Positions 2,793 through 61,531 of a DNA stretch of 64,000 nucleotides are shown in pieces. Under the pieces are notes generated by a model. The model did no database searches, was not told the DNA's origin, and saw only the letters and a program-made list of their open reading frames with translations. The stretch is from contig JAOADU010000060.1 in assembly GCA_026417155.1 (NCBI GenBank), positions 11,604 to 75,603 on the forward strand, read 5' to 3'. The first letter of the stretch is position 1. Each line of letters starts with the position of its first letter. Source of the DNA: Bacteroidales bacterium (GTDB taxonomy: Bacteria; Bacteroidota; Bacteroidia; Bacteroidales; GWA2-32-17). A program made the position numbers and the translations under genes.

Positions 2793-4808
2793 TTAAAATA
2801 AGTTTTCTATAATCTGATCGTCAACGAAATTAGGTAAAGTAACTGTCAATAATGGTTCCGATTCCATAGCACGTTTAATGGCAAATATAGCTCCTTCGTT
2901 ACGTGCCCAGCTTCGGCGCGCAATGCCATTATTTACATCCCAATGAAGCATCATCTTTAGTCGGCGGGCAGAATCGTCGCTTCCATCTAATACCATTCCA
3001 AATCCACCATTTATTACTTCACCCCAACCTACACCTCCTCCGTTGTGCAACGAAACCCATGTAGCACCACGGAAAGCATCGCCAATAACGTTATGAACTG
3101 CCATGTCGGCTGTAAAACGAGAACCATCGTATATGTTTGAAGTTTCTCGGAATGGTGAATCAGTGCCCGACACATCGTGATGATCTCTTCCTAGTACAAT
3201 AGGTGCCGAAATATATCCTTTTCGGATAGCATCATTAAAAGCTTTAGCAATTTCTATTCGTCCTTCGGCATCGGCGTATAAAATTCTTGCTTGACTTCCA
3301 ACAACAAGTTTGTTTTTTTTAGCTTCGCGAATCCATTTAAGATTGTCGAGCATTTGTTGTTTTATTTCGGTGGGTGCTTGTTTTGACAATTGTTCTATTA
3401 CATCGCCAGCTATTTCGTCGGTTTTATCTAAATCATCAGGATTTCCTGATGTGCATACCCAGCGGAAAGGACCAAAACCAAAATCGAAACACATAGGTCC
3501 CATAATATCTTGTACATACGAAGGGTATTTAAAAGAACCATCGGGTTTTAGAATATCTGCTCCTGCTCGACTTGCTTCAAGCAAAAATGCATTACCATAG
3601 TCGAAGAAATACATGCCACGTTCGCATAATGTATTGATAGCAGCAACATGACGTCGTAACGAGCTATAAACTAATTCTTTGAACTTCTCTGGATATTTAG
3701 CCATCAATTCATTGGCTTCTTCGAATGATATTCCTACTGGATAATAACCACCCGCAAACGGATTATGTAACGAAGTTTGATCGCTTCCTAATTCAACAAT
3801 TATGTTTTCTTTTACTAATCGTTCCCATAAATCTACAACATTTCCATGATACGCTAAAGAAACAGCTTCTTTATTTGATTTGGCTTTAATAATACGTGGT
3901 ATCAAGTCATCAAGGTTTTCATAAACTTCATCGACCCAACCTTGCGAATATCGAGTTTGTATTGCTTTAGGATTTACTTCGGCAATGACGCCAACGGCAC
4001 CAGCAATAACGGCTGCTTTGGGTTGAGCACCGCTCATACCACCCAAACCACTTGAGACAAAAAGCTTTCCCGATAAGTCTTCGCCATGTTTGCTGATAAT
4101 TCTTCCTGCATTAAGGATAGTAATAGTAGTACCGTGAACAATTCCTTGAGGACCAATGTACATATACGAACCTGCCGTCATTTGTCCATATTGTGTTACG
4201 CCAAGAGCATTAAAACGCTCATAATCTTCCTTGGATGAATAATTGGGTATCATCATTCCATTCGTAACCACAACACGAGGAGCGTCTTTGTGCGAAGGAA
4301 AGAGTCCCATCGGATGACCTGAATACATTACAAGGGTTTGATCGTCGGTCATTTCGCTTAAATATTTCATGGTGAGCAAGTATTGTGCCCAATTTTGAAA
4401 CACAGCACCATTGCCACCATAAGTAATTAGTTCATGAGGATGCTGAGCAACGGCAGGATCCAAGTTGTTTTGTATCATAAGCATAATGGCTGCTGCTTGC
4501 TTAGAACGATAAGGATATTCATCAATCGGTCGAGCATACATTTCGTAGTCGGGACGAAATCGGTACATGTAAATTCGACCGTAAGTATTCAATTCCTCCA
4601 AAAATTCAGGGGCTAATACTGCATGAAATTTTTTCGGAAAATACCGTAAAGCATTGCGTAAAGCTAGTTTTTTCTCTTCTTGTGATAATATATCTTTTCT
4701 TTTTGGGGCATGATTTACAGAAGGATCGTAAGGTTTGGGTTGAGGCAATTCATTGGGGATCCCTTGACGAATCAATCGTTTAAATTCTTCTTTCGATATC
4801 ATATGCAT
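2793..4808 (-). CDS. hutU: urocanate hydratase
   Basis: 671 aa, the long Bacteroidota-type urocanase. Conserved blocks include GLGGMSGAQPKA, YGNAFL and GRDHHDVSGTDSPFRETSN. Confidence 0.92.
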   Translation of the reverse strand: MHMISKEEFKRLIRQGIPNELPQPKPYDPSVNHAPKRKDILSQEEKKLALRNALRYFPKKFHAVLAPEFLEELNTYGRIYMYRFRPDYEMYARPIDEYPYRSKQAAAIMLMIQNNLDPAVAQHPHELITYGGNGAVFQNWAQYLLTMKYLSEMTDDQTLVMYSGHPMGLFPSHKDAPRVVVTNGMMIPNYSSKEDYERFNALGVTQYGQMTAGSYMYIGPQGIVHGTTITILNAGRIISKHGEDLSGKLFVSSGLGGMSGAQPKAAVIAGAVGVIAEVNPKAIQTRYSQGWVDEVYENLDDLIPRIIKAKSNKEAVSLAYHGNVVDLWERLVKENIIVELGSDQTSLHNPFAGGYYPVGISFEEANELMAKYPEKFKELVYSSLRRHVAAINTLCERGMYFFDYGNAFLLEASRAGADILKPDGSFKYPSYVQDIMGPMCFDFGFGPFRWVCTSGNPDDLDKTDEIAGDVIEQLSKQAPTEIKQQMLDNLKWIREAKKNKLVVGSQARILYADAEGRIEIAKAFNDAIRKGYISAPIVLGRDHHDVSGTDSPFRETSNIYDGSRFTADMAVHNVIGDAFRGATWVSLHNGGGVGWGEVINGGFGMVLDGSDDSARRLKMMLHWDVNNGIARRSWARNEGAIFAIKRAMESEPLLTVTLPNFVDDQIIENLF

Positions 4809-4851: not shown

Positions 4852-5112
4852 TTTATTCAAAATTCGTGTTAAGTAATTTTATCAATCATGCTTTGTTATT
4901 AGCATAATTTTATGTGGATTATGTTTAATAATTACATAATAAAGATAGTTTAATAAAATAGGCTATGTTCTAAAAATATTACTTAATATTTGCGGACAAT
5001 CAACCTTTGCTAAAACATTTAGTATCTAAATTTGAGTTGTTGAGTAGTATAAAATTAAGAACCAAATTTTTTAAAAATTATTGAGTTCTGTAAATATATA
5101 TTAAAGTAAGAA

Positions 5113-5220
5113 GTAAGAATACGATGTATCTCCGACATCTTTGTCGGAGATGTAATTCTTCACTGGCAGGATGCCAGTGTTACAGTGTGTCTTCGGCATT
5201 CATGTAGGAGTATAAATTTC
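5113..5220 (+). repeat. GC-rich hairpin-dense intergenic element, copy A (possible sRNA or MITE-like repeat)
   Basis: 10-bp hairpin ATCTCCGACA-tctt-TGTCGGAGAT (5128-5151) and 8-bp hairpin CACTGGCA-gga-TGCCAGTG (5161-5179). It aligns by eye, colinearly, with the reverse complement of 11838-11938. The absolute transcription direction is unknown. Confidence 0.5.
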
Positions 5221-5381
5221 TTGTTAGCTTCTTCGTTACTGCTACGAATGCATGAATAGAATTTCATAAATTAGTCAAAAATAAATATCAAATTAAGCCA
5301 ATTTACTTTAATGTATGATATTCAATACAAATAAACAATAAAATAATACTTTAAATATTTACTTTAAGTAAATAATAAACA

Positions 5382-6614
5382 TTAGTTTTTAATGCAACGA
5401 ACGGAATAACCACAAGTTCTATTTTGAAGACCACGGTAAATTGTATTGTATACCGTATGCAAGTATCGATAATAAGCTCCTGTTATACCATTTGCAGTTG
5501 CTGTCCAAAAATTAGCTGAATTTGTAATCTCATTAAAGCCTCCAGCCCATCCCCTATAACCTCCAGGTAAAGCTTTAAAGCCACTAACATTATTACCATT
5601 CCAAGCAGGTGAATTCAAACTCGTAGCTTTCATCTTATAACCTGGCCCAGCTGTAGAAGTAGATCCTCGCCAGTCTGTAAGAGTTTGAAAATTATTAAGT
5701 GAAGTACTTCCAGTTGGACTTATAGTAGTCTCTACACACCATTCGTATCGACTAAATTCAAAATCCGTTGGGATGTGATAATCACTTGGACATATTCCCT
5801 GCGGTGAACCGCTACCACAAGGGTCACAATTATAGAATGGAACACTTGCACTATTATTGTAATTAAAAGGGAATTGCATAGCTTCTGCCCATTGGTACAA
5901 ACCTCCATAATTTGAACAATTGGAAGGTGTATTATTGTAACAATATTTTTCTATTTCACTATCATTGTTTTGATCACCATCATTTACCATTATTCCTACA
6001 TCCATATTTGAATTAATCCATTGCTGTGTTCCACAAGATATAGTACATCCAATGGTACTTACCGTAATGGTGTTACTGTTATTACTTGTACCACAAGCAT
6101 TATTGGCACGCACTCGATAATAGTATGTTTGACCACAAGTTAAACCTGTTATGTTGTAGTTTGTAACATTCCCTACATTTAGGTTATTAAACCCAGAAAC
6201 AAAATTTGTGAAAGTATTATCAGTTGCCACATCTAAAAAATAATTTGTAGCACCACTACTAACATTCCAATTGGCGATAAAGCTTGTATTGGTTATACTA
6301 CTGGCAGCATTCGCATTTGGAACAGAAGGCACTGAAGTACAACCACATGAAATTTGTACCCATTGACTGAAGGACGAATTATACCATTCAAAGCAATTAG
6401 TTGTTGTATTAAAAATTAGTAAAGAATTAGCAGGGTTACTAATTGAATTACGCTGTGTAGTAGTCATGCGAGGAATCAACAGCCCCTTACTTGTTGATTG
6501 AATATCTAGCATGGCAGAATTATCAGGATTTGCACCCGTAGTGTTTATTGATATCTGGCTAAACAATAGGCTACTTAATAATAAACATGCTAACAAGAAG
6601 ATAATTTGTTTCAT
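5382..6614 (-). CDS. secreted protein with fibronectin type III-like domain and C-terminal FISUMP (Fibrobacter succinogenes major paralogous) domain
   Basis: Signal peptide [20 protein letters not shown] begins at the ATG at 6614; the TTG at 6680 in the ORF track is rejected. The FN3-like segment reads ...[14 protein letters not shown]...[14 protein letters not shown]. The C-terminal pattern YGGLYQW...[13 protein letters not shown]...[11 protein letters not shown]...ANFWTA...GYSVRCIKN matches FISUMP. Confidence 0.75.
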
Positions 6615-6911
6615 ATAGTTTAGATTTTTATGATTAATTATTTTATTTACGTTAAAATAACGTATATCTTTTATCAACAAAAATACTTTAAAATAAAAAT
6701 TAAATTACTGATAAGCGTTTGGATATATTTGTTTTAGCTAAGTATAGTTATACATGAGTTTAGAAAAAATATATAAACGATGATAAAATTTATTCAATGT
6801 AACTTAAAATCAAATATAGATAAATGATTAGATACTACAAAAACATCATTAAAAAATATATTAACAAAAATGAAAATATTAGCAATAAATAATATTTACA
6901 TTATTTCAAAT

Positions 6912-11170: not shown

Positions 11171-11719
11171 TTACCACTCTTCTTTCTTGGGTGTAGTAGG
11201 TTTAGTTAAATATTCTTCGAAATGTTTAATCATTGCTTTAATTTCTTTGTCAATTTGCTCGAGATAGTAGTAGTTTTTAGTTGTAAAAGAAGGCGATGTT
11301 TTATCTAACCATTTTTCGATGGGGGTGTACGAAGTTTCTTTTAGATTTATTTCGTTTACAACAATTCGGGCTTTGTTATCTTTGTATTGAGTTGTAACAG
11401 TATATTGTACAATGCCTCGCATAGTTTGTACGTTGTTTTTATCGGGCGGATTAAGAACTTTTATTTGATGCTTTCCGATAATCTGACCATTTGTGGGATC
11501 TTCTTGACGAATTACGCCGGTAGGGTTTTTGAAATAGCTAAAAAACCAGCTTTTCCCTTTTCTAAAAAGCGAATCTTTATGGGCATTAACAGAAATAACT
11601 TTTGTATAAGTTATAGTTTTAGTTGCTGAGTCAATAGGAAGCGATGGCTCTTTATATTCTTCTTTCTGACTCCACGAATAGCTATAAATAAAAATAAAGC
11701 TTAAAACAAACCATTTCAT
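11171..11719 (-). CDS. secreted DUF4468-like protein
   Basis: 182 aa with a signal peptide. The pattern ITYTKVISV...LFRKGKSWFFSYFKNP...IIGKHQIKV recalls DUF4468. No function is inferable. Confidence 0.45.
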   Translation of the reverse strand: MKWFVLSFIFIYSYSWSQKEEYKEPSLPIDSATKTITYTKVISVNAHKDSLFRKGKSWFFSYFKNPTGVIRQEDPTNGQIIGKHQIKVLNPPDKNNVQTMRGIVQYTVTTQYKDNKARIVVNEINLKETSYTPIEKWLDKTSPSFTTKNYYYLEQIDKEIKAMIKHFEEYLTKPTTPKKEEW

Positions 11720-11837
11720 ATACTTAAATTTTGTTCGAATTTAATAACTTTTTCATGATTAATAAAATCATACATGGATCGAGACTCTTGCAAGACTGTT
11801 AATTTTTAACTATGAAATGGTAAATAACTTAAAGAAG

Positions 11838-11938
11838 TGGGATTCTTACTAAGATTCCGGAGATACCTTGTACCACTGGCATCTTGCCAGTGAAAAGCTT
11901 ACACTTCGATAGTGATGCCGGATACACAGTGTATCGCG
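11838..11938 (-). repeat. GC-rich hairpin-dense intergenic element, copy B (inverted relative to copy A)
   Basis: Hairpin CACTGGCA-tct-TGCCAGTG (11874-11892) has the same 8-bp stem as copy A. A second hairpin, GATACAC-a-GTGTATC, lies at 11921-11935. The reverse complement aligns colinearly with 5124-5215. Confidence 0.5.
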
Positions 11939-12049
11939 AAAAAAAATGTTGTATTAAAAAGTTATTTATTTAAAAAAGCAAAAATTATTGAATAGATTAT
12001 GGTTAGTCTTCTCATCAAATTATTATTTTTTACTGAGAAATTAAAAAAA

Positions 12050-13687
12050 CTAATAAGATAAAATTTTTACCAATGGTATTCTTCTGCCAAAGCCAAATGC
12101 TTTGGGCGATATTCTTAAAACCGGTGGTGCCTGATATCGCTTAAAATCGTATTGATAGAGCAAAGCAAATACTTTGTAAACAGTTTCTTTGTCGAAACCA
12201 GCGTTTATAATATCTTCAACCGTTTGTTGTTGTTCAATTAATTGGAATAGAATACCATCTAATATCTCGTAAGGAGGCAAACTGTCGCTATCTTTCTGAT
12301 TAGGACGCAATTCTGCCGAAGGTGTTTTTTTGATAATATGTTGGGGAATTCTTTCGCGATCATGATTCAAATATCGAGCCAGTTCATATACTTGAGTTTT
12401 ATATACATCGCCAAGTACTGAAATGGCACCACACATATCGCCATAAAGCGTTCCGTAGCCTGTAGCCATTTCGCTTTTATTGGAGGTATTTAAAAGTACA
12501 TGCCCGTGTTTATTCGAATAAGCCATTAAATATATGGCACGAATGCGAGCTTGGATATTTTCTTCTGTGATATCGGGCTTTTTACCGGAAAATATAGGCA
12601 AAAGTATTTCTTCCGTTTTTGAAAACACTGGTTCTATCGAAATAATATCGTAAGTAATATGATTTCGTTGACATAGTTCTATAGCATCTGTTACAGAATG
12701 ATTGGAAGAATAACGAGAAGGCATTAGGAGTGCATGCACATTATGGGCACCAAGAGCATCAGCAGCAAGAATAGCTACTACTGCACTATCTATTCCCCCC
12801 GATAAACCAAGTATAGCTTTAGAAAATTTATTTTTTTGAAAAAAATCTTTTATTCCAAAAACTAAAGCATCGTAAATAAATCGAATAGGGTTGGGATTGA
12901 AATGATTGTAAAGAATTTGATTAGGATCAACAATGCGTAGGTCTTCGTTAAAAAAATGGCAAATATGGTAACCATTGTTGTCGATAAAGATCGAACCTCC
13001 ATCAAAAATCAAATCAGTATGTACACCAACCTGATTGACATATACGATGGGACAATTTAGTTTTAGTTGTGCACCATGCAAAATTTCGTAGCGATGTGTA
13101 ATTTGAGTATATGAAAATGGTGAAGCGGCAATATTTATTAAGTAATCGGGCTGTTGTGTTTTTAGTTTTTCTATTATATCGTATTGATACTGTGGTTTGC
13201 CAATGGCTGGTTCAGGATCAAGTGACTTAGTCCAAAGATCTTCGCAAATGGTTATAGCTATTTTTTTATTAAAAATTTCTATAACAAGCGGTTGGTAAGA
13301 AGGTTCAAAATATCGGGCTTCGTCAAAAACATCGTATGTAGGCAAAAGTGCTTTATTATATTTTGCGATGATATTTCCATTTGTAAGAACAAAAGCTGTG
13401 TTAAACAGAGCTTTACCTTCGCTCAAATTTCTATCTATGCCGCCAACAATTGCTACAATATCCTTACATTCATTCGCAATAAATTGAATAGCATCAATAG
13501 ATTGTTGTATAAATGCTTCATCGAACAAAAGATCATAAGGTGGGTATCCGCAAATGGAAAGTTCTGAAAATACTGCAATGTGAACTTGTTCTTTTTTGGC
13601 TTTTTGTATTGCAGAAACAATTTTTTGCTTATTCCCTTCTATATCGCCAACAATATAATTTAGTTGGCAAAGAGCAAACCGCAACAT
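12050..13687 (-). CDS. nadE: glutamine-dependent NAD+ synthetase
   Basis: 545 aa. The N-terminal CN-hydrolase domain has the ITICEDLW catalytic Cys block. The C-terminal NAD synthetase domain has the PP-loop GLSGGIDSAV. Confidence 0.92.
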   Translation of the reverse strand: MLRFALCQLNYIVGDIEGNKQKIVSAIQKAKKEQVHIAVFSELSICGYPPYDLLFDEAFIQQSIDAIQFIANECKDIVAIVGGIDRNLSEGKALFNTAFVLTNGNIIAKYNKALLPTYDVFDEARYFEPSYQPLVIEIFNKKIAITICEDLWTKSLDPEPAIGKPQYQYDIIEKLKTQQPDYLINIAASPFSYTQITHRYEILHGAQLKLNCPIVYVNQVGVHTDLIFDGGSIFIDNNGYHICHFFNEDLRIVDPNQILYNHFNPNPIRFIYDALVFGIKDFFQKNKFSKAILGLSGGIDSAVVAILAADALGAHNVHALLMPSRYSSNHSVTDAIELCQRNHITYDIISIEPVFSKTEEILLPIFSGKKPDITEENIQARIRAIYLMAYSNKHGHVLLNTSNKSEMATGYGTLYGDMCGAISVLGDVYKTQVYELARYLNHDRERIPQHIIKKTPSAELRPNQKDSDSLPPYEILDGILFQLIEQQQTVEDIINAGFDKETVYKVFALLYQYDFKRYQAPPVLRISPKAFGFGRRIPLVKILSY

Positions 13688-17815: not shown

Positions 17816-18391
17816 ATTATCAGGTTTCCAAGGTTTGTTATATTCGTTCATGCAACGATCAATTCCAGTTAAAATGAATGCTTCTATTGCTTGAATGCAT
17901 CGTTGTGTGTAATAGGGCAATATTTTTAGTTCATCATCTGTGAAAGGGCTCAATACATAATCAGCTTGTTTGCCGTGTGGATAATTGTTACCAATGCCAA
18001 ATCGTAAGCGAGCATATTCGTTGGTTTGTAATACTTCGTCAATATGAGCAAGACCATTGTGCCCTCCGTTTGAGCCTTTAGGTCTGATGCGAATAGTTCC
18101 AAACGGTAAAGCAATGTCGTCTACTACAACAAGCATATTTTCGAGTAAAATATTTTCTTTTTGTAACCAGTATCGAACGGCATTCCCGCTTAGGTTCATG
18201 TATGTTGTAGGTTTAATGAGGAAGATACGATGGCTTTTTATCGAAATTTCTGCAATTTCGGCATATCTGTTAACATTAAATAAAACATTAGAGGCTTTTG
18301 CCCAAGCCTCTAATACGATAAAACCAATATTGTGCCTTGTTTGTTGGTATTTTATCCCAGGATTTCCTAATCCAGCGATTAAATATTTCAA
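17807..18391 (-). CDS. pth: peptidyl-tRNA hydrolase
   Basis: 194 aa. [12 protein letters not shown]...TRHNIGF...GGHNGL blocks. Its 3' end overlaps the tyrS 3' end by 9 nt (convergent). Confidence 0.93.
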
Positions 18392-31774: not shown

Positions 31775-34114
31775 ATGAATAGCAATGATAATCAGCAACA
31801 GAAAATAAAAAAGTGGGTTAAAATCTTATGGATTCTTTTTACCATTCCAATAATATTTGTAATTCTTTTCTTTTATCTGATTTCTAAAGGATATTTGGGT
31901 TACATGCCAAGTTTTGATGAAATGGAGAATCCTAAAAATCAATTGGCAACCGAAATAATTTCGAGCGATGGTGTAGTACTCGGAACATATTTTAAAGAAA
32001 ATAGAACTCCTGTAAAATATGAAGAAATTTCGCCCAATGTTATTAATGCATTAATCGCAACGGAAGATATTCGTTTTTATAATCATTCGGGAGTTGATTT
32101 AAGGGCTTTGATTCGAGTAATTGTTGGAACAGGAAAAAGAGGAGGAGGAAGTACTATAACTCAGCAACTTGCTAAAATGTTGTTTCCACGCGAAGATTTT
32201 TCTAATCCTGTTTCAAAAGTTATTAGAAAACTTCGTGAGTGGGTAATGGCAATTAAATTAGAACGCCGTTATACTAAAGAAGAAATTCTCACTATGTATT
32301 TAAATAAATTTGACTTTTTATATTTGGCTGTTGGAATTAAATCTGCTGCAAAGGTTTATTTTAGTACAACTCCCGATTCATTAAGAATTGAACAAGCTGC
32401 AATGTTGATAGGAATGTGCAAAAATCCTTCGTTATACAATCCATTACGACGCCCTGAACAAACACTCGAAAGAAGAAATGTTGTATTAGGGCAAATGTTT
32501 AAATATGGCTTTATTACCGAACAACAATATGACTCATTAAAAAAATTGCCCCTAAATATTAAATTTCAGCGTGTAGATCACAAGGAAGGAATTGCTACTT
32601 ATTTTCGCGAATATCTTCGCATGATTATAACTGCCAATAAACCAAATAAAAAAGATTACATAGATTTACAGCGATACTATGAAGACTCGCTCGATTGGGA
32701 AACTAATCCACTTTATGGCTGGTGTAATAAAAATCTAAAACCCGACGGAACCCCTTACGATATATATAAAGACGGATTAAAAATATATTGCACAATTGAT
32801 TCTAGAATGCAACGATATGCAGAAGAAGCCGTTTATCAGCATATGGCTCTATTTTTACAACCTGCATTTTTCAAAGAACAAAAAGGAAGAAAAAAAGCTC
32901 CTTTTGCCTGGAACGTTTCGGATGAAGAAATTCAGCAAATCATGAAAATATCTATAAAACGAACTGAACGATATAGGGTTTTGAAGAATAATGGATTATC
33001 TGAAGATGAAATCATGAAAATTTTTCATCAACCAGTACCTATGACAGTTTTTACATGGAAAGGCGAAAAAGACACAATAATGTCGCCATACGATTCAATA
33101 CGATATTATAAATTCTTTTTGCGTACGAGTTTATTCTCAATGGAACCTCAAACAGGTTATGTAAGGGCTTATGTGGGAGGTATAAATTATAAGTATTTTG
33201 CTTTCGATCAAGCAACTATTGGCAAGCGTCAGGTTGGTTCAACATTTAAGCCTTTTTTATATACTTTAGCCATGCAAGAAGGATATTCGCCTTGTTACGA
33301 AGTACCAAATATTCCTGTTTCATTCGAACTTCCTGATGGCAACGTGTGGACACCTAAAAACAGCGGACCAACAAAACGCGATGGCCAAATGGTAACATTA
33401 CGCTGGGCATTAGCTAATTCAGTAAATTATATTTCGGCATGGCTAATGAAACGATACAACCCTCATGCTGTAATAGAAATTGCAAGAAAAATGGGTATTC
33501 GTAGTAAAATAGACCCTGTTCCAGCTATATGTTTGGGTGTGCCAGAAATATCATTAGCCGAAATGACAGCAGCTTTTTCTGTATATGCCAATAAAGGCAT
33601 ATATGTGCAACCTATCTATGTAACTCGAATTACCGATGCTAACGGAAATGTATTAGCAACTTTTAAGCCTCAGCGAAATGAAGCTATTAGTGAACAAACA
33701 GCTTATAAGATGATAGAAATGTTGCGAGCTGTAGTTCAACAAGGAACAAGCTGGCGACTTAAAGGACGGTATAACATAAATGCCGATGTTGCTGCTAAAA
33801 CTGGAACAACACAAAATCAATCCGATGGATGGTATATAGGCATTACACCCAAATTAGCTACGGGTGTTTGGACGGGGGGAGAGGAAAGAAGTATCCATTT
33901 TAATAGTTTGGAATTGGGTCAAGGTGCAAGTATGTCGTTGCCAACCTGGGCATATTATATGGCAAAAATATATGCCCATCCCGAATTGGGTTATTCGGAT
34001 AAGGATATTTTCGAAAAACCTGCTAATTTTGACGAAGATATGGGTTGTAAACAAATGAAACCATACGAAGAAATTGGCAGTGATTATGAAATAATAGAAT
34101 CAATACCAGAATAA
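31775..34114 (+). CDS. bifunctional class A penicillin-binding protein (PBP1A type)
   Basis: Start taken at MNSNDNQQQKIKKW (31775), followed by a TM helix. The ORF-track start at 31640 would overlap topA. Glycosyltransferase motifs are EDIRFYNHSGVD and GGSTITQQLAK. Transpeptidase motifs are STFKP, SVN and KTGTT. Confidence 0.92.
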   Translation: MNSNDNQQQKIKKWVKILWILFTIPIIFVILFFYLISKGYLGYMPSFDEMENPKNQLATEIISSDGVVLGTYFKENRTPVKYEEISPNVINALIATEDIRFYNHSGVDLRALIRVIVGTGKRGGGSTITQQLAKMLFPREDFSNPVSKVIRKLREWVMAIKLERRYTKEEILTMYLNKFDFLYLAVGIKSAAKVYFSTTPDSLRIEQAAMLIGMCKNPSLYNPLRRPEQTLERRNVVLGQMFKYGFITEQQYDSLKKLPLNIKFQRVDHKEGIATYFREYLRMIITANKPNKKDYIDLQRYYEDSLDWETNPLYGWCNKNLKPDGTPYDIYKDGLKIYCTIDSRMQRYAEEAVYQHMALFLQPAFFKEQKGRKKAPFAWNVSDEEIQQIMKISIKRTERYRVLKNNGLSEDEIMKIFHQPVPMTVFTWKGEKDTIMSPYDSIRYYKFFLRTSLFSMEPQTGYVRAYVGGINYKYFAFDQATIGKRQVGSTFKPFLYTLAMQEGYSPCYEVPNIPVSFELPDGNVWTPKNSGPTKRDGQMVTLRWALANSVNYISAWLMKRYNPHAVIEIARKMGIRSKIDPVPAICLGVPEISLAEMTAAFSVYANKGIYVQPIYVTRITDANGNVLATFKPQRNEAISEQTAYKMIEMLRAVVQQGTSWRLKGRYNINADVAAKTGTTQNQSDGWYIGITPKLATGVWTGGEERSIHFNSLELGQGASMSLPTWAYYMAKIYAHPELGYSDKDIFEKPANFDEDMGCKQMKPYEEIGSDYEIIESIPE

Positions 34115-34115
34115 T

Positions 34116-35205
34116 ATGATTACAATCGATCATGTAAAAGAATTGATTGAAAGGCGAGATGCCTTAAGGAGGTATCTTTGACATCAATCACAAAAGAGTT
34201 GTATTAGAAGAAGAAGAATTAAAAACCCGCGATCCTGATTTTTGGAACGATCCCAAAAAAGCAGAAGCTATTTTAAAAAATATTTCAATCCTTAAAAACT
34301 GGATAGAATCTTTCGACAAAATTAATACGTTGGTTGAAGATTTGTCTATCATATATGAATTTTATAAGCAACAAGAAATTAGCGAAAAAGAAATTGAAGA
34401 ACATTATCATCAAACATTAAAAGCAATAGAGACACTGGAGTTTAAAAATATGCTTCAGGAAGAAGAAGACAAATTACCAGCGTTGATGAAAATTAATAGC
34501 GGAGCAGGTGGAACAGAAAGTCTCGATTGGGTAAGTATGTTATTGCGAATGTATCAACGATGGGGAGAATCGCATAATTTTAAAGTTAGAATTATAGATT
34601 TACAACCAGGCGAAGAAGCAGGAGTTAAATCGGTAATGCTCGAATTTCAGGGTGAATATGCTTATGGTTATCTGAAAAGCGAAACAGGAGTGCATCGTTT
34701 GGTTAGAATTTCGCCATTTAATGCACAAGGCAAAAGGCAAACTACATTTGCATCTGTTTTTGTATCGCCAATGATTGACGAAAATATTGAAATAAACATT
34801 AATCCTGCTGAATTGGAGTGGGACACTTTCCGTTCAAGTGGTCCTGGTGGACAAAACGTTAATAAAGTTGAAACAGGTGTCAGATTGCGTCATATACCAA
34901 CAGGTATAGTGATAGAAAATCAGGAGAGCCGTTCGCAATTGACCAATAAGGAAAATGCGTTACGTTTATTAAAATCACAATTGTATGAGTTAGAATTACA
35001 AAAACGTAGAGAGAAGCAAGCCGAATTAGAAGGTCAAAAGTTAAAAATAGAATGGGGTTCGCAAATTCGTTCCTATGTTCTTCATCCTTATAAACTTGTA
35101 AAAGATTTACGGACAAATTATGAAACATCGGATGCTCAAGGTGTACTTGATGGAGACATCGATGCATTTATAAAAGCTTATTTAATGCAATTTTCAAAAA
35201 AATGA
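34116..35205 (+). CDS. prfB: peptide chain release factor 2, with programmed +1 frameshift (join 34116..34178, 34180..35205)
   Basis: Frame-0 reads MITIDHVKELIERRDALRRYL then TGA (34179-34181). The +1 frame continues DINHKRVVLEEEELKTRDPDFWNDPKKAEAIL... in frame with ORF 34330..35205. The SPF motif (RISPFNAQ) and GGQ motif (SGPGGQNVNK) are present. Confidence 0.95.
34167..34182 (+). promoter_or_regulatory. RF2 autoregulatory frameshift site AGGAGG-TAT-CTT-TGA-C
   Basis: Internal SD-like AGGAGG (34167-34172) lies 3 nt upstream of the slippery CTT TGA C. This matches the canonical bacterial prfB recoding signal. Confidence 0.9.
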
Positions 35206-36404: not shown

Positions 36405-39400
36405 ATGAAATTTCTTACAATAATATTCTGCTTTGTTTTTATTGGTGAGTTATTTTCAATCAAAGCAAATACAAGTGTGTTTATTAAAAACCAAGGTCAA
36501 ATTGCCAGTATTGAAACCAATCAACCACTTAAGGAAGTGTTATATTATATTTCTACTCCTAATGCAAAGCTATATTTAACGACTAAAGGGTTGATATATT
36601 TTTTTCAGAAAAATCAGATAAATATTGATGAAACAGAGATCCCAATTGCTAAACAAACCGAATGGCAACGAGTGGATGTTGAGTTTAAAAATGCTAATTT
36701 TTCAAATGTTATTGAAAACGAACCTGTGGCATGGCATTATAATTTCTTTTATGCTCATTGCCCCCAAGGAATAATGAATGTGCCAGCATTTAGAGAGTTA
36801 TATGTAAAAAATATTTATAAAGGAATAGACTTAAAATTTTACATTCAAGATGACAAGTTGAAGTATGATTTTATTGTTTATCCATATGCTGATTACAAAC
36901 AAATACAAATGGAATATAAATACGTAGATTATCCATACATAGACCCATCGGGAGATGCTATAATTAATACACTATATGGAAAAATAATTGAATCTAAGCC
37001 TGTTTGTATACAAGGAAATAAAATCATTGAAAATACCTCATGGATTAGTAATGGCAACATTTTACAATTTAATGTTCCTTATTACGACAAAAGTCAATTT
37101 TTAGTTATAGATCCATTCCTTATTTGGAGTACTTACTTTGGTGGCAACTCAGATGAAGCTTCCGAAAGTATTGCAATAAATCAGAATATGATTATTATTG
37201 CTGGAAATACAAGCTCATCAAACCTGCCTACATACAATCCTGGTTCTGGAGCATATTTTAGTGGTAGTAATACTGGCTTAACGGATATTTTCATAGCTGC
37301 TTTTAATTTAGATCATAGTATTCGCTGGGTAACTTATTACGGAGGCACAAAAGATGATGTAAAAGGTAAACCCATTATTGCAAACGATACTTATATATAT
37401 GTTTCGGGTCAATCAAATTCAACAGATATCCCTACGCTAAATCCCGGTGGAGGAGCATTTTATCAGGCTACTTTAAACAACACAGGAACTTATGACGGTT
37501 TTTTAATAAAATTTTCAATATTTGGACAGTTGCTTTGGGCGACTTATCTTGGTGGAAGCGATCAGGATGAATTAAGTTTTTTAGCGAATAACAATAATAG
37601 TCTATATGCTTATGTTTTAACATATTCGTCCGATATGCCATTGGTAAATCCGGGAGGAGGCGCTTGGCAACAAGGAGCAACAAACAATAACGAACATATT
37701 TATTTAGCTCGATTCGATTTGAACTCAAATGCCATGTTATGGGGAACTTATTTTGGACAATCAACAACTGGAATGGGATATAGTTGGAATACGATCACTT
37801 GCAATAATACACATCTTTATGGTGCATTCAATACAAAAGATATCAATTCACCTACTTTATCTTTGTCGGGAGCGTATAATGATAATACTTATAATGGCGG
37901 AACATCTGATTTGTTAATTTGCAGGTTTACAGCAAACGGGGTTTTAGAATGGGCTACATATTTTGGAGGAAATGGATACGAAGAACAAAGAGGTATATCA
38001 ATATCAAACAACAGACTTTGGGTATCTGGTACTACAGCCTCCAACGCCAATTTCCCATTAGTAGATCCTGGAAATGGAGCATATTTTCAAAACACTTACG
38101 GAGGTGGTGCTGCTGATGGATTTATTGCTTCTTTTTCTTTGAATGGACAGTTGTTATGGAGTACATATTATGGAGGGAATCAGCACGATTATATTCGTGA
38201 TATTAAAGGCGATAATTATGGAATATTTATAGCAGGAAGAATTACAGGCGGGAATTTTCCATTATACAATCCCGGGACACCTACATTTTACGAAAGTTCT
38301 TCAAGATCCACATTTATTGCCAAATTTAAGCAAAATGGTATTCGTCAATGGTCAACCTATTTTTCAGGCTCGGCAGGAGATATTAGAAAACTTGCTGTAA
38401 CTAATGATGCTGTATATTTAACCGGATTTGTTAATAATTCGTTATTAACTCAAGATCCTGGAAATGGAGCTTACTTCGATAACACTTTCAATGGAGGGAC
38501 GTGGGATGCGTTTATTGCAAAGTTTGATAAATGTGTTATTCCTACTGTACAAGTAACAGCGAGTCAAAATGCTATTTGTAAGTACGATTCTACATGGTTG
38601 TATGCAACGGGAGGTATCAATTATTTGTGGAGCACCTTACAGACAACCGATTCTATTCATGTAGCACCATTGAGCACTACATCGTATAGTGTTACAGTTA
38701 CTGATGATATGACTTGTACGAATACGGGGAACATAAATATTACTGTGTATCCATTGCCCGATGTAAATATTTTAGGAGCTCATCCTATTTGTTTTAACGA
38801 TAGTATTACAATTTCAGCAGTAGGTGCTCAAACATATCAATGGCTACCAGGAATGCAAACAACAAGCAGCATAACAGTTACTCCAGCAAATACAACTACA
38901 TATTATGTTATTGGTACCGACCAAAATTCTTGTAGTAACATAGATTCAGTGCAGATAATAGTACATCCACTGCCATTGGTTACTATTTCTGGTGAGCATC
39001 CGATTTGTTTAAACGATAGTATCTGGCTCTATGGAAATGGAGCAACATCTTACGTGTGGTCAACAATGGCTGCCACTGATAGTATTCAAGTTAGTCCATT
39101 ACAAACAACTATTTTTTATGTAACTGGAACAGACAATAATGGATGTAAAAACAAAGATTCGGCAGAAGTCGTAGTATATCCACTGCCCAATGTTCAAATT
39201 ACAGGGAATCACCCCATTTGTTTTGGCGATAGCCTAACTCTTTATGCAAATGGGGCACATACATATTTTTGGACACCTGGCAATTATAATACAGATAGTA
39301 TTATAGTTAGTCCTTCGCAAACAACGACATTCTATGTTTTAGGTACTGATACAAATATGTGTAAAAATATAGATTCTACTACGGTTACTGTATTCGATTT

Positions 39401-41192
39401 GCCTAATGTGCAAATTCAAGGCGATCATCCTATATGCTTTGGCGATAGCATTACATTGGCAGCAACTGGTGCAGTTTCTTATGTGTGGTATCCTGGTGCA
39501 TTAACGGGCAATCAACAAATATTTTCACCATTACAAACAACTACTTACGTTGTGGTAGGAACAGATCACAATCAGTGTGTCAATAGCGATACTGTTAGTA
39601 TTACGGTATATCAGCTTCCCAATGTGCAAATTCAAGGCGATCATCCCATATGTTTTGGTGATAGTATAACATTGACAGCAACCGGTGCAGTTTCTTATGT
39701 GTGGTACCCAGGGACATTAACAGGTAATCAACAAACATTCCAACCTAACTCGACACAGCAATATATTGTAATTGGTACAGACATCAATCAATGCAAAAAT
39801 AGTGATTCGGTTACTATTGTCGTTTATCCATTGCCTAATGTTCAAATTACAGGAAATCATCCTATATGTTTTGGTGATTCAATAACACTTCAAGCAATAA
39901 ATGCTCAAACGTATGTTTGGAACACAGGAGTCAATCAGTCATCTATTACCGTAGCACCATTACAAAGCACAACATATATGGTAACCGGAACAGATACAAA
40001 TGGATGTATGAATGCTGATACGGCTTTTGTTATAGTAAATCCTTTGCCCTTAGTGAGGATAAATGGTGTACATCCTATTTGTTTATACGATAGTATAAGT
40101 CTTTCTGCTGCAGGAGCAGTGCTTTATACATGGCAACCCTGGGGTTATCAAAGTTCTGCTATACAAGTTTCGCCGCAACAAACAACACAAATAATTTTAA
40201 CCGGTACCGATGCTAATGGATGTGTAAATAGCGATACAGCAACTTTGGTAGTTTATGCTTTGCCAATAGTATCGGTTAGTGGAGCAAATCCTATATGTTT
40301 TGGTGATAGTGTAACTGTAACTGCTAATGGAGCTCAAAATTATATCTGGATGCCAGGAAATTTAACCGGAAACAATCAAGTCCTTTCGCCACAACAAACA
40401 ACTACATACATTGTTACAGGAATCGATACGAATCAATGCAAAAATACGACACAATTCGATATAATTGTTTATGAATTGCCCGTCGCTAATATAAATGGGA
40501 TATCGCGAATTTGTCAAATGGAAGAAGTAACGTTAACTGCAACAGGTGGAACTTCGTATTTGTGGAATACACAACAAACAGACAGCTCAATAAATGTCGC
40601 TCCCATGACAACAACAACTTATAGCGTTATTGCGTTTAAAAATATTTGCTCCGATACGGCATATTTTACAATAATTGTTGATGAAAAACCTACTTTAACT
40701 ATTACTAACGATACAACGATTATTATTGGGATGAATGTTCCTTTAAATGTAAGCGGGGCTCAAACTTATTCATGGACGCCAATTCAGTATCTTTCTTGTG
40801 TTACATGTGCCAACCCAATAGCAAAACCTTCGGACAACATAGAATATTGTGTAGTTGGAACTACAGCACAAGGCTGTTCCGACACCGTTTGTGTTCAGAT
40901 TACTGTAGATAAAGAATGCGGAGAAGTGTTTATACCATCGGGCTTCAGTCCTAACAACGATGGTAATAACGATGTACTTTTTGTTCGTGGCAAATGTATC
41001 AAAAAAATGCAATTCTATGTATATAATCGATGGGGTGAAAAAGTTTTTGAGTCAAACGACCCAGATATTGGATGGGATGGCACATTTAGAGGCAAGGCAA
41101 TGGATAGTGGGGTATTTGTTTATCAGTTAAGAGCTGAATATTATAATGGAGTTGTAGTAAACAAACAAGGTAATGTTACATTAATTCGTTAG
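36405..41192 (+). CDS. giant T9SS-secreted surface protein: SBBP-type beta-propeller, ~11 Ig-like repeats and a type B C-terminal sorting domain
   Basis: 1595 aa with a signal peptide. There are about 7 blades marked by W[SAVG]TY[FYL]GG. The repeats of about 73 aa follow the pattern YPLPNVQI.G.HPICFGDSITL...GA..Y.W.PG......SP.QTT.Y.V.GTD.N.C.N.D. The C-terminus (40917-41189) reads FIPSGFSPNNDGNNDVLFVRG...YNRWGEKVFE...GWDGTFRGK..DSGVFVY, the gliding-motility-associated C-terminal domain. Confidence 0.85.
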   Translation: MKFLTIIFCFVFIGELFSIKANTSVFIKNQGQIASIETNQPLKEVLYYISTPNAKLYLTTKGLIYFFQKNQINIDETEIPIAKQTEWQRVDVEFKNANFSNVIENEPVAWHYNFFYAHCPQGIMNVPAFRELYVKNIYKGIDLKFYIQDDKLKYDFIVYPYADYKQIQMEYKYVDYPYIDPSGDAIINTLYGKIIESKPVCIQGNKIIENTSWISNGNILQFNVPYYDKSQFLVIDPFLIWSTYFGGNSDEASESIAINQNMIIIAGNTSSSNLPTYNPGSGAYFSGSNTGLTDIFIAAFNLDHSIRWVTYYGGTKDDVKGKPIIANDTYIYVSGQSNSTDIPTLNPGGGAFYQATLNNTGTYDGFLIKFSIFGQLLWATYLGGSDQDELSFLANNNNSLYAYVLTYSSDMPLVNPGGGAWQQGATNNNEHIYLARFDLNSNAMLWGTYFGQSTTGMGYSWNTITCNNTHLYGAFNTKDINSPTLSLSGAYNDNTYNGGTSDLLICRFTANGVLEWATYFGGNGYEEQRGISISNNRLWVSGTTASNANFPLVDPGNGAYFQNTYGGGAADGFIASFSLNGQLLWSTYYGGNQHDYIRDIKGDNYGIFIAGRITGGNFPLYNPGTPTFYESSSRSTFIAKFKQNGIRQWSTYFSGSAGDIRKLAVTNDAVYLTGFVNNSLLTQDPGNGAYFDNTFNGGTWDAFIAKFDKCVIPTVQVTASQNAICKYDSTWLYATGGINYLWSTLQTTDSIHVAPLSTTSYSVTVTDDMTCTNTGNINITVYPLPDVNILGAHPICFNDSITISAVGAQTYQWLPGMQTTSSITVTPANTTTYYVIGTDQNSCSNIDSVQIIVHPLPLVTISGEHPICLNDSIWLYGNGATSYVWSTMAATDSIQVSPLQTTIFYVTGTDNNGCKNKDSAEVVVYPLPNVQITGNHPICFGDSLTLYANGAHTYFWTPGNYNTDSIIVSPSQTTTFYVLGTDTNMCKNIDSTTVTVFDLPNVQIQGDHPICFGDSITLAATGAVSYVWYPGALTGNQQIFSPLQTTTYVVVGTDHNQCVNSDTVSITVYQLPNVQIQGDHPICFGDSITLTATGAVSYVWYPGTLTGNQQTFQPNSTQQYIVIGTDINQCKNSDSVTIVVYPLPNVQITGNHPICFGDSITLQAINAQTYVWNTGVNQSSITVAPLQSTTYMVTGTDTNGCMNADTAFVIVNPLPLVRINGVHPICLYDSISLSAAGAVLYTWQPWGYQSSAIQVSPQQTTQIILTGTDANGCVNSDTATLVVYALPIVSVSGANPICFGDSVTVTANGAQNYIWMPGNLTGNNQVLSPQQTTTYIVTGIDTNQCKNTTQFDIIVYELPVANINGISRICQMEEVTLTATGGTSYLWNTQQTDSSINVAPMTTTTYSVIAFKNICSDTAYFTIIVDEKPTLTITNDTTIIIGMNVPLNVSGAQTYSWTPIQYLSCVTCANPIAKPSDNIEYCVVGTTAQGCSDTVCVQITVDKECGEVFIPSGFSPNNDGNNDVLFVRGKCIKKMQFYVYNRWGEKVFESNDPDIGWDGTFRGKAMDSGVFVYQLRAEYYNGVVVNKQGNVTLIR
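38532..40916 (+). repeat. coding tandem array of ~11 Ig-like repeat units (period ~216-219 bp)
   Basis: Units start near 38532, 38751, 38967, 39180, 39399, 39615, 39831, 40043, 40260, 40476 and 40686. Units 5 and 6 share long near-identical stretches in their first ~120 nt. Confidence 0.85.
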
Positions 41193-61507: not shown

Positions 61508-61531
61508 AAAAACGGGAGAAAATCTCCCGTT
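61505..61531. terminator. intrinsic terminator hairpin between convergent lgt and glgP-like genes
   Basis: Hairpin AACGGGAG-aaaat-CTCCCGTT (61511-61531) is preceded by an A-run on the plus strand. That A-run is a T-run after the hairpin on the minus strand, so it is best oriented for the minus-strand phosphorylase gene. Confidence 0.6.

Follow-up and report, generated by a model that had tools for sequence, protein, structure and literature searches.

RESULTS

Two copies of a hairpin-rich block in AT-rich spacers

The window analysed here, that is, the whole stretch of 64,000 nucleotides (nt; 64 kb) from contig JAOADU010000060.1 of a Bacteroidales bacterium, carries two copies of a compact, GC-rich and hairpin-dense block, copy A and copy B, both of which sit between co-directional minus-strand genes. 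Copy A lies in a 573-nt spacer that extends from the stop codon of a Fib_succ_major/fn3 gene (5382-6680, minus strand) to the start of hutU (2793-4808, minus strand), the gene for urocanate hydratase (urocanase), whose product is 93-85% identical to its next best relatives. Copy B occupies a 330-nt spacer between the stop codon of nadE (12050-13687, minus strand) and the start of a DUF4468 gene (11171-11719, minus strand). The distance past the stop codon of the upstream gene is 182 nt for copy A and 114 nt for copy B, and since copy A on the plus strand is equivalent to copy B on the minus strand, the two blocks point in opposite directions relative to the flanking minus-strand genes, copy B being in sense orientation within an operon-like spacer (nadE-DUF4468-SpoU). 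The first-pass annotation of this DNA had described a GC-rich block within an AT-rich spacer, and base composition bears this out, as the spacer has 13-28% GC while the region around 5130-5220 reaches 43-48%. The blocks comprise the following features, in which P1 and P2 denote the palindromes of the block and M2 a repeated half-arm.

5119-5199, plus strand: copy A, a mosaic of palindromic units (local alignment, blastn, covariance model match of 118 bits)
5128-5151, no strand: P1, perfect 10-bp palindrome forming a hairpin in copy A only (arms ATCTCCGACA/TGTCGGAGAT, centre TCTT)
5161-5179, no strand: P2 of copy A, perfect 8-bp palindrome CACTGGCA-GGA-TGCCAGTG, with TT on its 5' side and TTACA on its 3' side
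5184-5199, plus strand: M2, an incomplete third occurrence of the left arm of P1 (GTGTGTCTTCGGCAT), read from the sequence
11854-11935, minus strand: copy B, inverted relative to copy A (alignment, blastn, covariance model match of 122 bits)
11874-11892, no strand: P2 of copy B, CACTGGCA-AGA-TGCCAGTG followed by GTACA (sequence)
11918-11938, no strand: hairpin found in copy B only, CGCGATACA-CTG-TGTATCCGG, at an offset differing from that of P1 in copy A (sequence, folding)

The layout of the block is thus a P1-type palindrome, about 9 nt, a P2-type palindrome and half a P1 arm. Both perfect hairpins that had been proposed for copy A, of 10 bp at 5128-5151 and of 8 bp at 5161-5179, were found as described, and such stems are rare by composition: among 2000 shuffles of the block, 0.45% contained a stem of at least 8 bp, 0.05% one of at least 10 bp, and none contained two stems of at least 8 bp. 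GC-rich perfect hairpins occur in only about 10 places across the window, and one was seen in about 200 kb of relatives. The second, inverted copy is likewise real, and its extent was refined, since local alignment pairs 5119-5199 with 11935-11854 where the earlier reading had given 11838-11938; blastn aligns the copies over 82 nt with 76% identity (E 1.4e-8). The window contains exactly two instances of the core TTCACTGGCA-N-GATGCCAGTG, where 0.01 would be expected, and no third site with up to 3 mismatches. Judged from its sequence, the block is real and its two copies are homologous over about 82 nt.

Other parts of the initial description did not hold. Weaker similarity had been thought to continue to about 5275; however, the 3' parts (p=0.38) and the 5' flanks (p=0.11) align no better than shuffled sequence, so that this extension is unsupported. 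The 'cUUCGg-like' motif noted downstream of P2 has no supporting stem, and copy B has TCTCCGGAAT in its place. The statement that the stem is conserved while the loop differs is true of P2; at 76% identity, however, 24 matches within 27 columns are no more than expected (permutation p=0.43), and the sameness of P2 in the two copies is therefore evidence neither of selection nor of covariation. By the same permutation, conservation of the core was ruled out as a sign of selection. The 10-bp P1 hairpin is not kept in copy B, where about 4 of its 10 pairs survive; in copy A two perfect hairpins persist despite the 24% divergence between the copies. In blastn, 5' and 3' motifs cross-match between the copies, and M2 could pair with the P1 right arm in an alternative helix enclosing P2. 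RNAalifold on the two copies together placed a helix at columns 21-24/82-85.

The block is absent from relatives, and copy B lies in extra DNA

The gene order OMP-nadE-DUF4468-SpoU, where OMP is an outer membrane protein gene, is conserved together with further genes in two relatives (L041, L042). The nadE-DUF4468 spacer measures 330 nt in the window as against 49-54 nt in four relatives (L041-L044), and the best single-deletion alignment removes about 286 nt (12037 to 11752) while keeping the promoter-proximal ATTCGAACAAAA by the start codon. From these syntenic spacers and the deletion alignment we conclude that copy B came with about 280 nt of extra DNA.

11752-12037, minus strand: about 280 nt of extra spacer DNA holding copy B, end points approximate (spacer comparison, deletion alignment)

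The empty site is thus clear for copy B in these four relatives. Synteny breaks off at copy A: each relative examined has different genes upstream of hutU, and the spacers there are without the block. A composite transposon bounded by copies A and B was considered and rejected, because the ancestral nadE-DUF4468-SpoU order and orientation are kept across copy B.

Next to the extra DNA, a T-rich box GCTTTTTG found upstream of the DUF4468 gene in relatives (L041:6368-6385, L042:9499-9516) is replaced in the window by GAAAAAG (11745-11760), beside the retained ATTCGAACAAAA, and a similar GCTTTTTT stands at 11979-11972, on the far side of the extra DNA. Given this replacement, the ancestral DUF4468 promoter may have been displaced by the insertion. 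Near hutU, a relative whose hutU is 90% identical has a tRNA gene upstream of hutU, which the window lacks, and a comparison of L021:3740-9840 with L022:1420-1520 showed an island of about 6 kb in one assembly, inserted at the 3' end of this tRNA, whose 3' half is duplicated; this island encodes a tyrosine integrase, an HTH_17 protein, a DUF3987 protein and a primase-like protein. In the closest long relative contig, a 656-nt spacer (L013:12800-13100) contains GC-rich repeats (GCTTCGCTCACTGCGTTCGCTCGCCATGACGG, twice) and a perfect hairpin GCCCCGAAGTAATTCGGGGC; to judge by their sequence, which is unrelated to the block, these resemble CGTC-tagged repeats of the repetitive extragenic palindromic (REP) type.

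Copy number was followed by several searches. In the window, nhmmer with --max and a covariance model with filters off recovered the two copies only (plus their own reverse strands), and 174 kb from the nearest relatives contained no copy. Thus, of the check for copies and relatives that had been suggested, the outcome is two copies in 64 kb and no conservation in the relatives' 174 kb. Among 185,579 species genomes the core pattern gave no homologue with similar flanks, the matches being unrelated and mostly from Planctomycetota. In JGI metagenomes one scan returned 0 loci and another 50, none with flank homology; a P2 scan of IMG/VR gave 18 loci, none related to the block; and blastn of the block against phage and plasmid records gave no match. 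As the first-pass annotation had left open, the block could have been a known Rfam family, and it is not one: nothing in the whole window reached a gathering threshold, and only chance-level matches (E>0.4) fell near the two copies. A literature search on the exact block sequences returned nothing relevant.

Transcription, folding and coding potential

The view that the hairpins are not a simple terminator, since no T-tract follows them, was upheld: no terminator-like site was found in either spacer on either strand. The block is also not tRNA-like, in agreement with what had been stated, as a scan for tRNA and tmRNA was negative. The folding z-scores on the two strands were -4.4/-5.1 for copy A and -2.9/-3.2 for copy B, so the predicted folding energy is without consistent strand preference.

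Promoter matches were compared across the window, and one of them faces copy A.

5006-5034, plus strand: perfect match to a Bacteroidetes-type promoter, TTTG-N17-TAAATTTG, directed towards copy A in the block sense

This match is separated from copy A, downstream, by 85 nt; it faces neither of the neighbouring genes, and no plus-strand gene follows it before 6949. It is one of six perfect matches in the window, the other five being two in spacers and facing the next gene, at 6841 (at the Fib_succ gene) and 19124 (at the L25 gene), and three within genes. The copy B spacer contains no promoter match of 9/10 or better.

A small-protein gene was examined as a further candidate and discarded: open reading frames (ORFs) of 27-32 amino acids (aa) cross the block, but their starts are not conserved between the copies. 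Substitutions fall 6/10/10 by codon position (counted by hand), with no third-position bias, and the small-ORF products had no protein match in a database of 5.8 billion clusters.

Palindrome families elsewhere that resemble P2 and P1

Scans of genomes and metagenomes with the P2 pattern returned mostly GC-rich loci of Planctomycetota, among them a multi-copy palindrome, CACTGGCA-RGA-TGCCAGTG followed by GCAC or CCAC(C) (L002-L006, L009, L070, L083, L091). One locus (L009, 1422-2857) holds 7 copies in 1.5 kb, and the copies often form inverted pairs and also occur inside long ORFs; a second palindrome, CATGCTCACGC-AA-GCGTGAGCATG, stands alongside with the same GCACCC tail. By its arrangement the family looks like a REP family with a non-GTAG tag, REPs being multi-copy palindromes which often occur as inverted pairs and even within ORFs (Di Nocera et al. 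2013, PMC3733652). It shares with P2 the same 8-bp arms, an identity built into the comparison because the search pattern imposed the arms, as well as both loop variants (AGA and GGA) and a similar 3' tail, N-Y-A-C; at L091, a second hairpin 10 nt away, CCGGCA-TCC-TGCCGG, resembles P1 of copy A. On the other hand, the hosts are GC-rich members of another phylum, the tail is GCAC or CCAC where the window has GTAC or TTAC, and there is no flank homology. The link between P2 and the Planctomycetota palindrome is suggestive, and the likeness in sequence may reflect descent or coincidence. Readings of the palindrome as a CRP-like or a sigma-54-like site were set aside, the order and spacing of the half-sites being wrong by eye.

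For P1, its 9-bp arms with a 4-nt centre were found in at least 50 IMG/VR contigs, compared with 2 and 1 for two composition-matched control hairpins, an enrichment of at least 25-fold. These matches represent 25 independent contexts in contigs of 29-65% GC, and their consensus, ATGTCTCCGACAT-NN-ATGTCGGAGACAT, is a 28-nt perfect palindrome in which the positions outside the searched bases are 72-96% conserved.

L097-L146 (IMG/VR): loci of the viral 28-nt palindrome
L147:1201-1228: the same palindrome in Haemophilus phage HP1, at 32215-32242

In most cases the viral palindrome follows a stop codon at a distance of 1-40 nt, and the genes concerned are varied, including those for a major head and a baseplate protein and orf35 of phage HP1. 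Its contexts have no neighbouring protein in common and belong to no Rfam family, it is nearly absent from collections of cultured phages, plasmids and E. coli, and our literature search found no paper describing its sequence. P1 of copy A is like it in having the same 9-bp arms (18 of 18 core positions, by construction of the search), the inner bases ACAT/TGT and a position downstream of ORFs; it differs in that its centre is a 4-nt mismatch and in that nothing beyond the palindrome is similar. As patterns for a wider scan for the palindromes we propose ATGTCTCCGACATNNATGTCGGAGACAT and CACTGGCARGATGCCAGTGNYAC.

Several large IMG/VR contigs of about 135-138 kb and 72-78% GC (L025, L027, L033, L036, L037, L039 and L040) carry GAACACTGGCAGAATGCCAGTGTTCGCAC units flanking AT-rich dyads; the palindromes of these contigs look like replication origins of alphaherpesviruses and not like phage sequence.

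DISCUSSION

A dispersed palindromic repeat as the favoured reading

The reading that we favour, at somewhat less than even confidence, is that the two blocks are diverged copies of a lineage-specific dispersed repeat made of palindromic units, a mosaic like a REP or bacterial interspersed mosaic element (BIME) or like a miniature inverted-repeat transposable element (MITE), and not a dedicated RNA gene. The first-pass annotation had offered a small RNA family, a MITE-like remnant or a structured protein-binding site, and within that range the results lean to a dispersed palindromic repeat or an insertion remnant. We prefer this because syntenic relatives lack the block and have a spacer of about 50 nt in place of 330; because the copies lie in opposite orientations, their folds favour no strand consistently and no homologue is found in relatives; because both hairpins resemble recurrent palindrome families elsewhere; and because the P1 structure is lost in copy B, the core is conserved no more than chance would allow and Rfam holds no match.

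If this is correct, the block would have spread by DNA insertion or duplication, through a transposase or through recombination, and copy B, with its broken P1, would be a decaying copy. Any present activity would be independent of orientation, since perfect palindromes fold alike on either strand and would appear as stem-loops in read-through transcripts. Those of the Fib_succ_major gene and of nadE would then carry stable stem-loops that might hinder 3'-5' exonucleases, or pause or partly terminate transcription, as has been described for REP elements; alternatively, the activity might lie in DNA-level structure.

REP and BIME sequences are marked by a palindromic unit of 20-40 bp, an extragenic position, chiefly past the ends of ORFs and between unidirectional or convergent genes, tens to hundreds of copies per genome, an unpaired GTAG or CGTC tag at one stem end and an associated Y1 transposase gene flanked by the repeats, the REP-associated tyrosine transposase (RAYT); the concepts of RAYT and of REPIN reportedly come from work by Nunvar in 2010 and by Bertels and Rainey in 2011. 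The blocks share several of these traits. P2 (19 nt, with an 8-bp stem in both copies) and P1 (24 nt, with a 10-bp stem in copy A) are short palindromic units, the block is extragenic, downstream of ORFs and between co-directional genes, and it forms a mosaic of different palindromic units that is independent of orientation. They differ from REPs and BIMEs in that the units form no clear inverted doublet of one sequence and in that the host is an AT-rich member of the Bacteroidales, in which only CGTC-type REPs have been reported.

A number of observations weigh against a dispersed repeat. Copy number is known here from 64 kb only and stands at two, so that the term 'repeat family' rests on n=2, whereas REPs are numerous; nor did a Pfam scan of the window ORFs of at least 120 aa reveal a RAYT (Y1_Tnp) gene or any other transposase, integrase or recombinase. 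The tag in its strict form, GTAG or CGTC, is lacking: the opposite-strand stem is preceded by GTAA in copy A and by GTAC in copy B, each matching GTAG at 3 of 4 positions, and there is no CGTC. As to the palindromes elsewhere, P1 agrees with the viral family, which has an outer ATG/CAT and an inner T/A, at no more than 3 of its 8 further conserved positions, and the links of both P1 and P2 to outside families, being likenesses of sequence, could be coincidence or convergence. The perfect promoter match facing copy A fits an RNA gene better. Finally, the inverted repeats described below, with their marginal scores and differing arms, and the want of homology beyond the 82-nt block count against a clean MITE structure.

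Alternative explanations

An RNA-based explanation, which we hold to be unlikely, would make the blocks a small RNA (sRNA) or a pair of related RNA elements in the block sense. Copy A would then be an independent sRNA made from the promoter at 5006-5034, with a transcription start site near 5040, and copy B would serve the nadE-DUF4468-SpoU transcript as a structured leader or an intercistronic element. P2 would be a hairpin recognised by a protein or an RNA, and M2 and the P1 left arm could be alternative pairing partners of the P1 right arm. Such a model is encouraged by the perfect TTTG-N17-TAnnTTTG promoter 85 nt upstream of copy A with no plus-strand gene to serve, and by the sense orientation of copy B within its operon-like spacer; moreover, shuffles of the GC-rich block fold far less well than the block itself, and one double substitution preserves a pair in a 4-bp helix. 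It is at odds with the copy B spacer, which has no promoter match of 9/10 or better, and with the lack of a terminator after either copy. Nor was the block conserved in the 174 kb of relatives or in the genome and metagenome collections, or matched in Rfam; the P1 structure is not conserved, neither strand is consistently preferred in folding, and what is most conserved is a perfect stem rather than a single-stranded seed. It is very improbable that the 19-bp palindrome CACTGGCA-N3-TGCCAGTG is instead the operator of a dimeric transcription factor acting on hutU and on DUF4468-SpoU. The perfect dyad with its variable centre has identical arms in both copies, both lie upstream of minus-strand genes, and a palindrome works in either orientation; but the sites are located at distances of 362 and 155 nt upstream from the start codons, well beyond the promoter-proximal stretch common to hutU and its relatives, and the copies remain homologous for about 30 nt to either side of the dyad, which indicates that a block was duplicated and not that sites converged. 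Relatives, in addition, have no such site at hutU or DUF4468, and the window has no third one with up to 3 mismatches.

Mobile or foreign DNA provides the other alternatives. Each copy might be the core of an element of about 222 nt with 14-bp inverted repeats at its ends, which could be a MITE or an invertible segment of the Bacteroidales type; this we consider improbable. The candidate repeats are as follows.

5096-5316, no strand: span with a weak inverted repeat around copy A, ATATATTAAAGTAA / TTACTTTAATGTAT, 13 of 14 complementary, 193 nt between the arms (p=0.08 vs shuffles)
11743-11966, no strand: span with a weak inverted repeat around copy B, AATAACTTTTTAAT / ATGAAAAAGTTATT, 13 of 14 complementary, 196 nt between the arms (p=0.04)

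Both copies are thus flanked by repeats complementary at 13 of 14 positions with nearly equal spans, and these repeats close the predicted folds. Like MITEs, of which Correia, RUP and Nezha are examples, the block lies in a small non-coding insertion that is absent at the orthologous site of relatives, as seen at the empty site of copy B, and can fold into a long hairpin; TAAAT is directly repeated beside the copy B arms, by eye. Like the invertible promoters (invertons) of Bacteroidales, reportedly described by Jiang and colleagues in 2019, the spans of about 220 nt are bounded by inverted repeats upstream of genes and are seen in opposite orientations, which inversion would explain, and a TAnnTTTG box falls within the copy A span (5283-5276, minus strand). 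However, the scores are marginal (p=0.08 and 0.04), the arms differ between the copies, and the AT-rich spacers yield many such repeats, 33 pairs in the copy A spacer alone. The interior is not homologous beyond the central 82-nt block, the flanks being no better than shuffles; the best deletion alignment spans about 286 nt and not 224, with end points other than those marked by the TAAAT repeats. Whereas an inverton would conserve its repeats and promoter, the conserved part here is the central hairpin block, and no recombinase or transposase was present among the ORFs scanned. For its marginal scores, differing arms and non-homologous interior this explanation stays a rival, and the strict term 'MITE' is not warranted, since there is neither a clean terminal inverted repeat with target-site duplication nor a match to a known insertion sequence or MITE.

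We also regard as quite unlikely that the blocks are functionless relics of horizontally acquired DNA, for example from a phage, left in two spacers, with the donor's terminator-like stems as their hairpins. The enrichment of the P1-type palindrome in viral contigs and its near absence from plasmid and E. coli collections would suit such an origin, as would the extra DNA around copy B and the synteny break at copy A. Yet nothing similar to the viral loci extends beyond the palindrome, blastn found no phage or plasmid match, no phage gene or integrase was seen among the window ORFs scanned, and two perfect hairpins survive in copy A though the copies are 24% diverged. Doubtful, too, is the bolder notion that the block is built of portable hairpin modules, a 28-nt one shared with phages and a 19-nt one shared with Planctomycetota, moving between very distant hosts. 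Were it true, an undescribed class of tiny mobile palindromes would give rise to new structured elements in the spacers of bacteria, for instance as 'terminator cassettes' or as targets of recombinases of the HUH or bridge-RNA type. If the outside links are real, very small modules would have spread across phyla and been recruited as RNA 3'-end or DNA structural elements.

With the dispersed palindromic repeat as the preferred reading, the finding is real but ordinary in kind, and its interest lies mainly in the palindrome families met alongside it. What it adds is the record of a hairpin-rich repeat, specific to its lineage, in the genome of an uncultured member of the Bacteroidales; the repeat is not a conserved RNA family, and the finding is modest at present. 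For annotation the lesson is that a GC-rich hairpin block in an AT-rich spacer should be labelled as an sRNA only with comparative support.

Other features of the window

The window genes scanned are housekeeping genes, and a few features unconnected with the block deserve mention. The gene for release factor 2, prfB (34116-35205, plus strand), has the classic programmed +1 frameshift, with the slip site at 34176-34182: a 21-codon ORF enters CTT TGA C, and from 34180 onwards the +1 frame reads without a stop into the PCRF/RF-1 ORF. A 1595-aa ORF, with a PorP/SprF gene after it, contains seven tandem repeats at 38906-40350, each 213-216 nt or 72 aa long and 60-75% identical; the product is probably a repetitive surface protein of type IX secretion. 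Two further strong, perfect hairpins near the ends of genes are probably terminators, one of 11 bp at 18287-18314 (ATTAGAGGCTT-TTGCCC-AAGCCTCTAAT), inside the 3' end of the Pth ORF and just downstream of the L25 gene, and one of 9 bp at 61511-61531 (AACGGGAGA-AAA-TCTCCCGTT), directly past the stop codon of the LGT gene.

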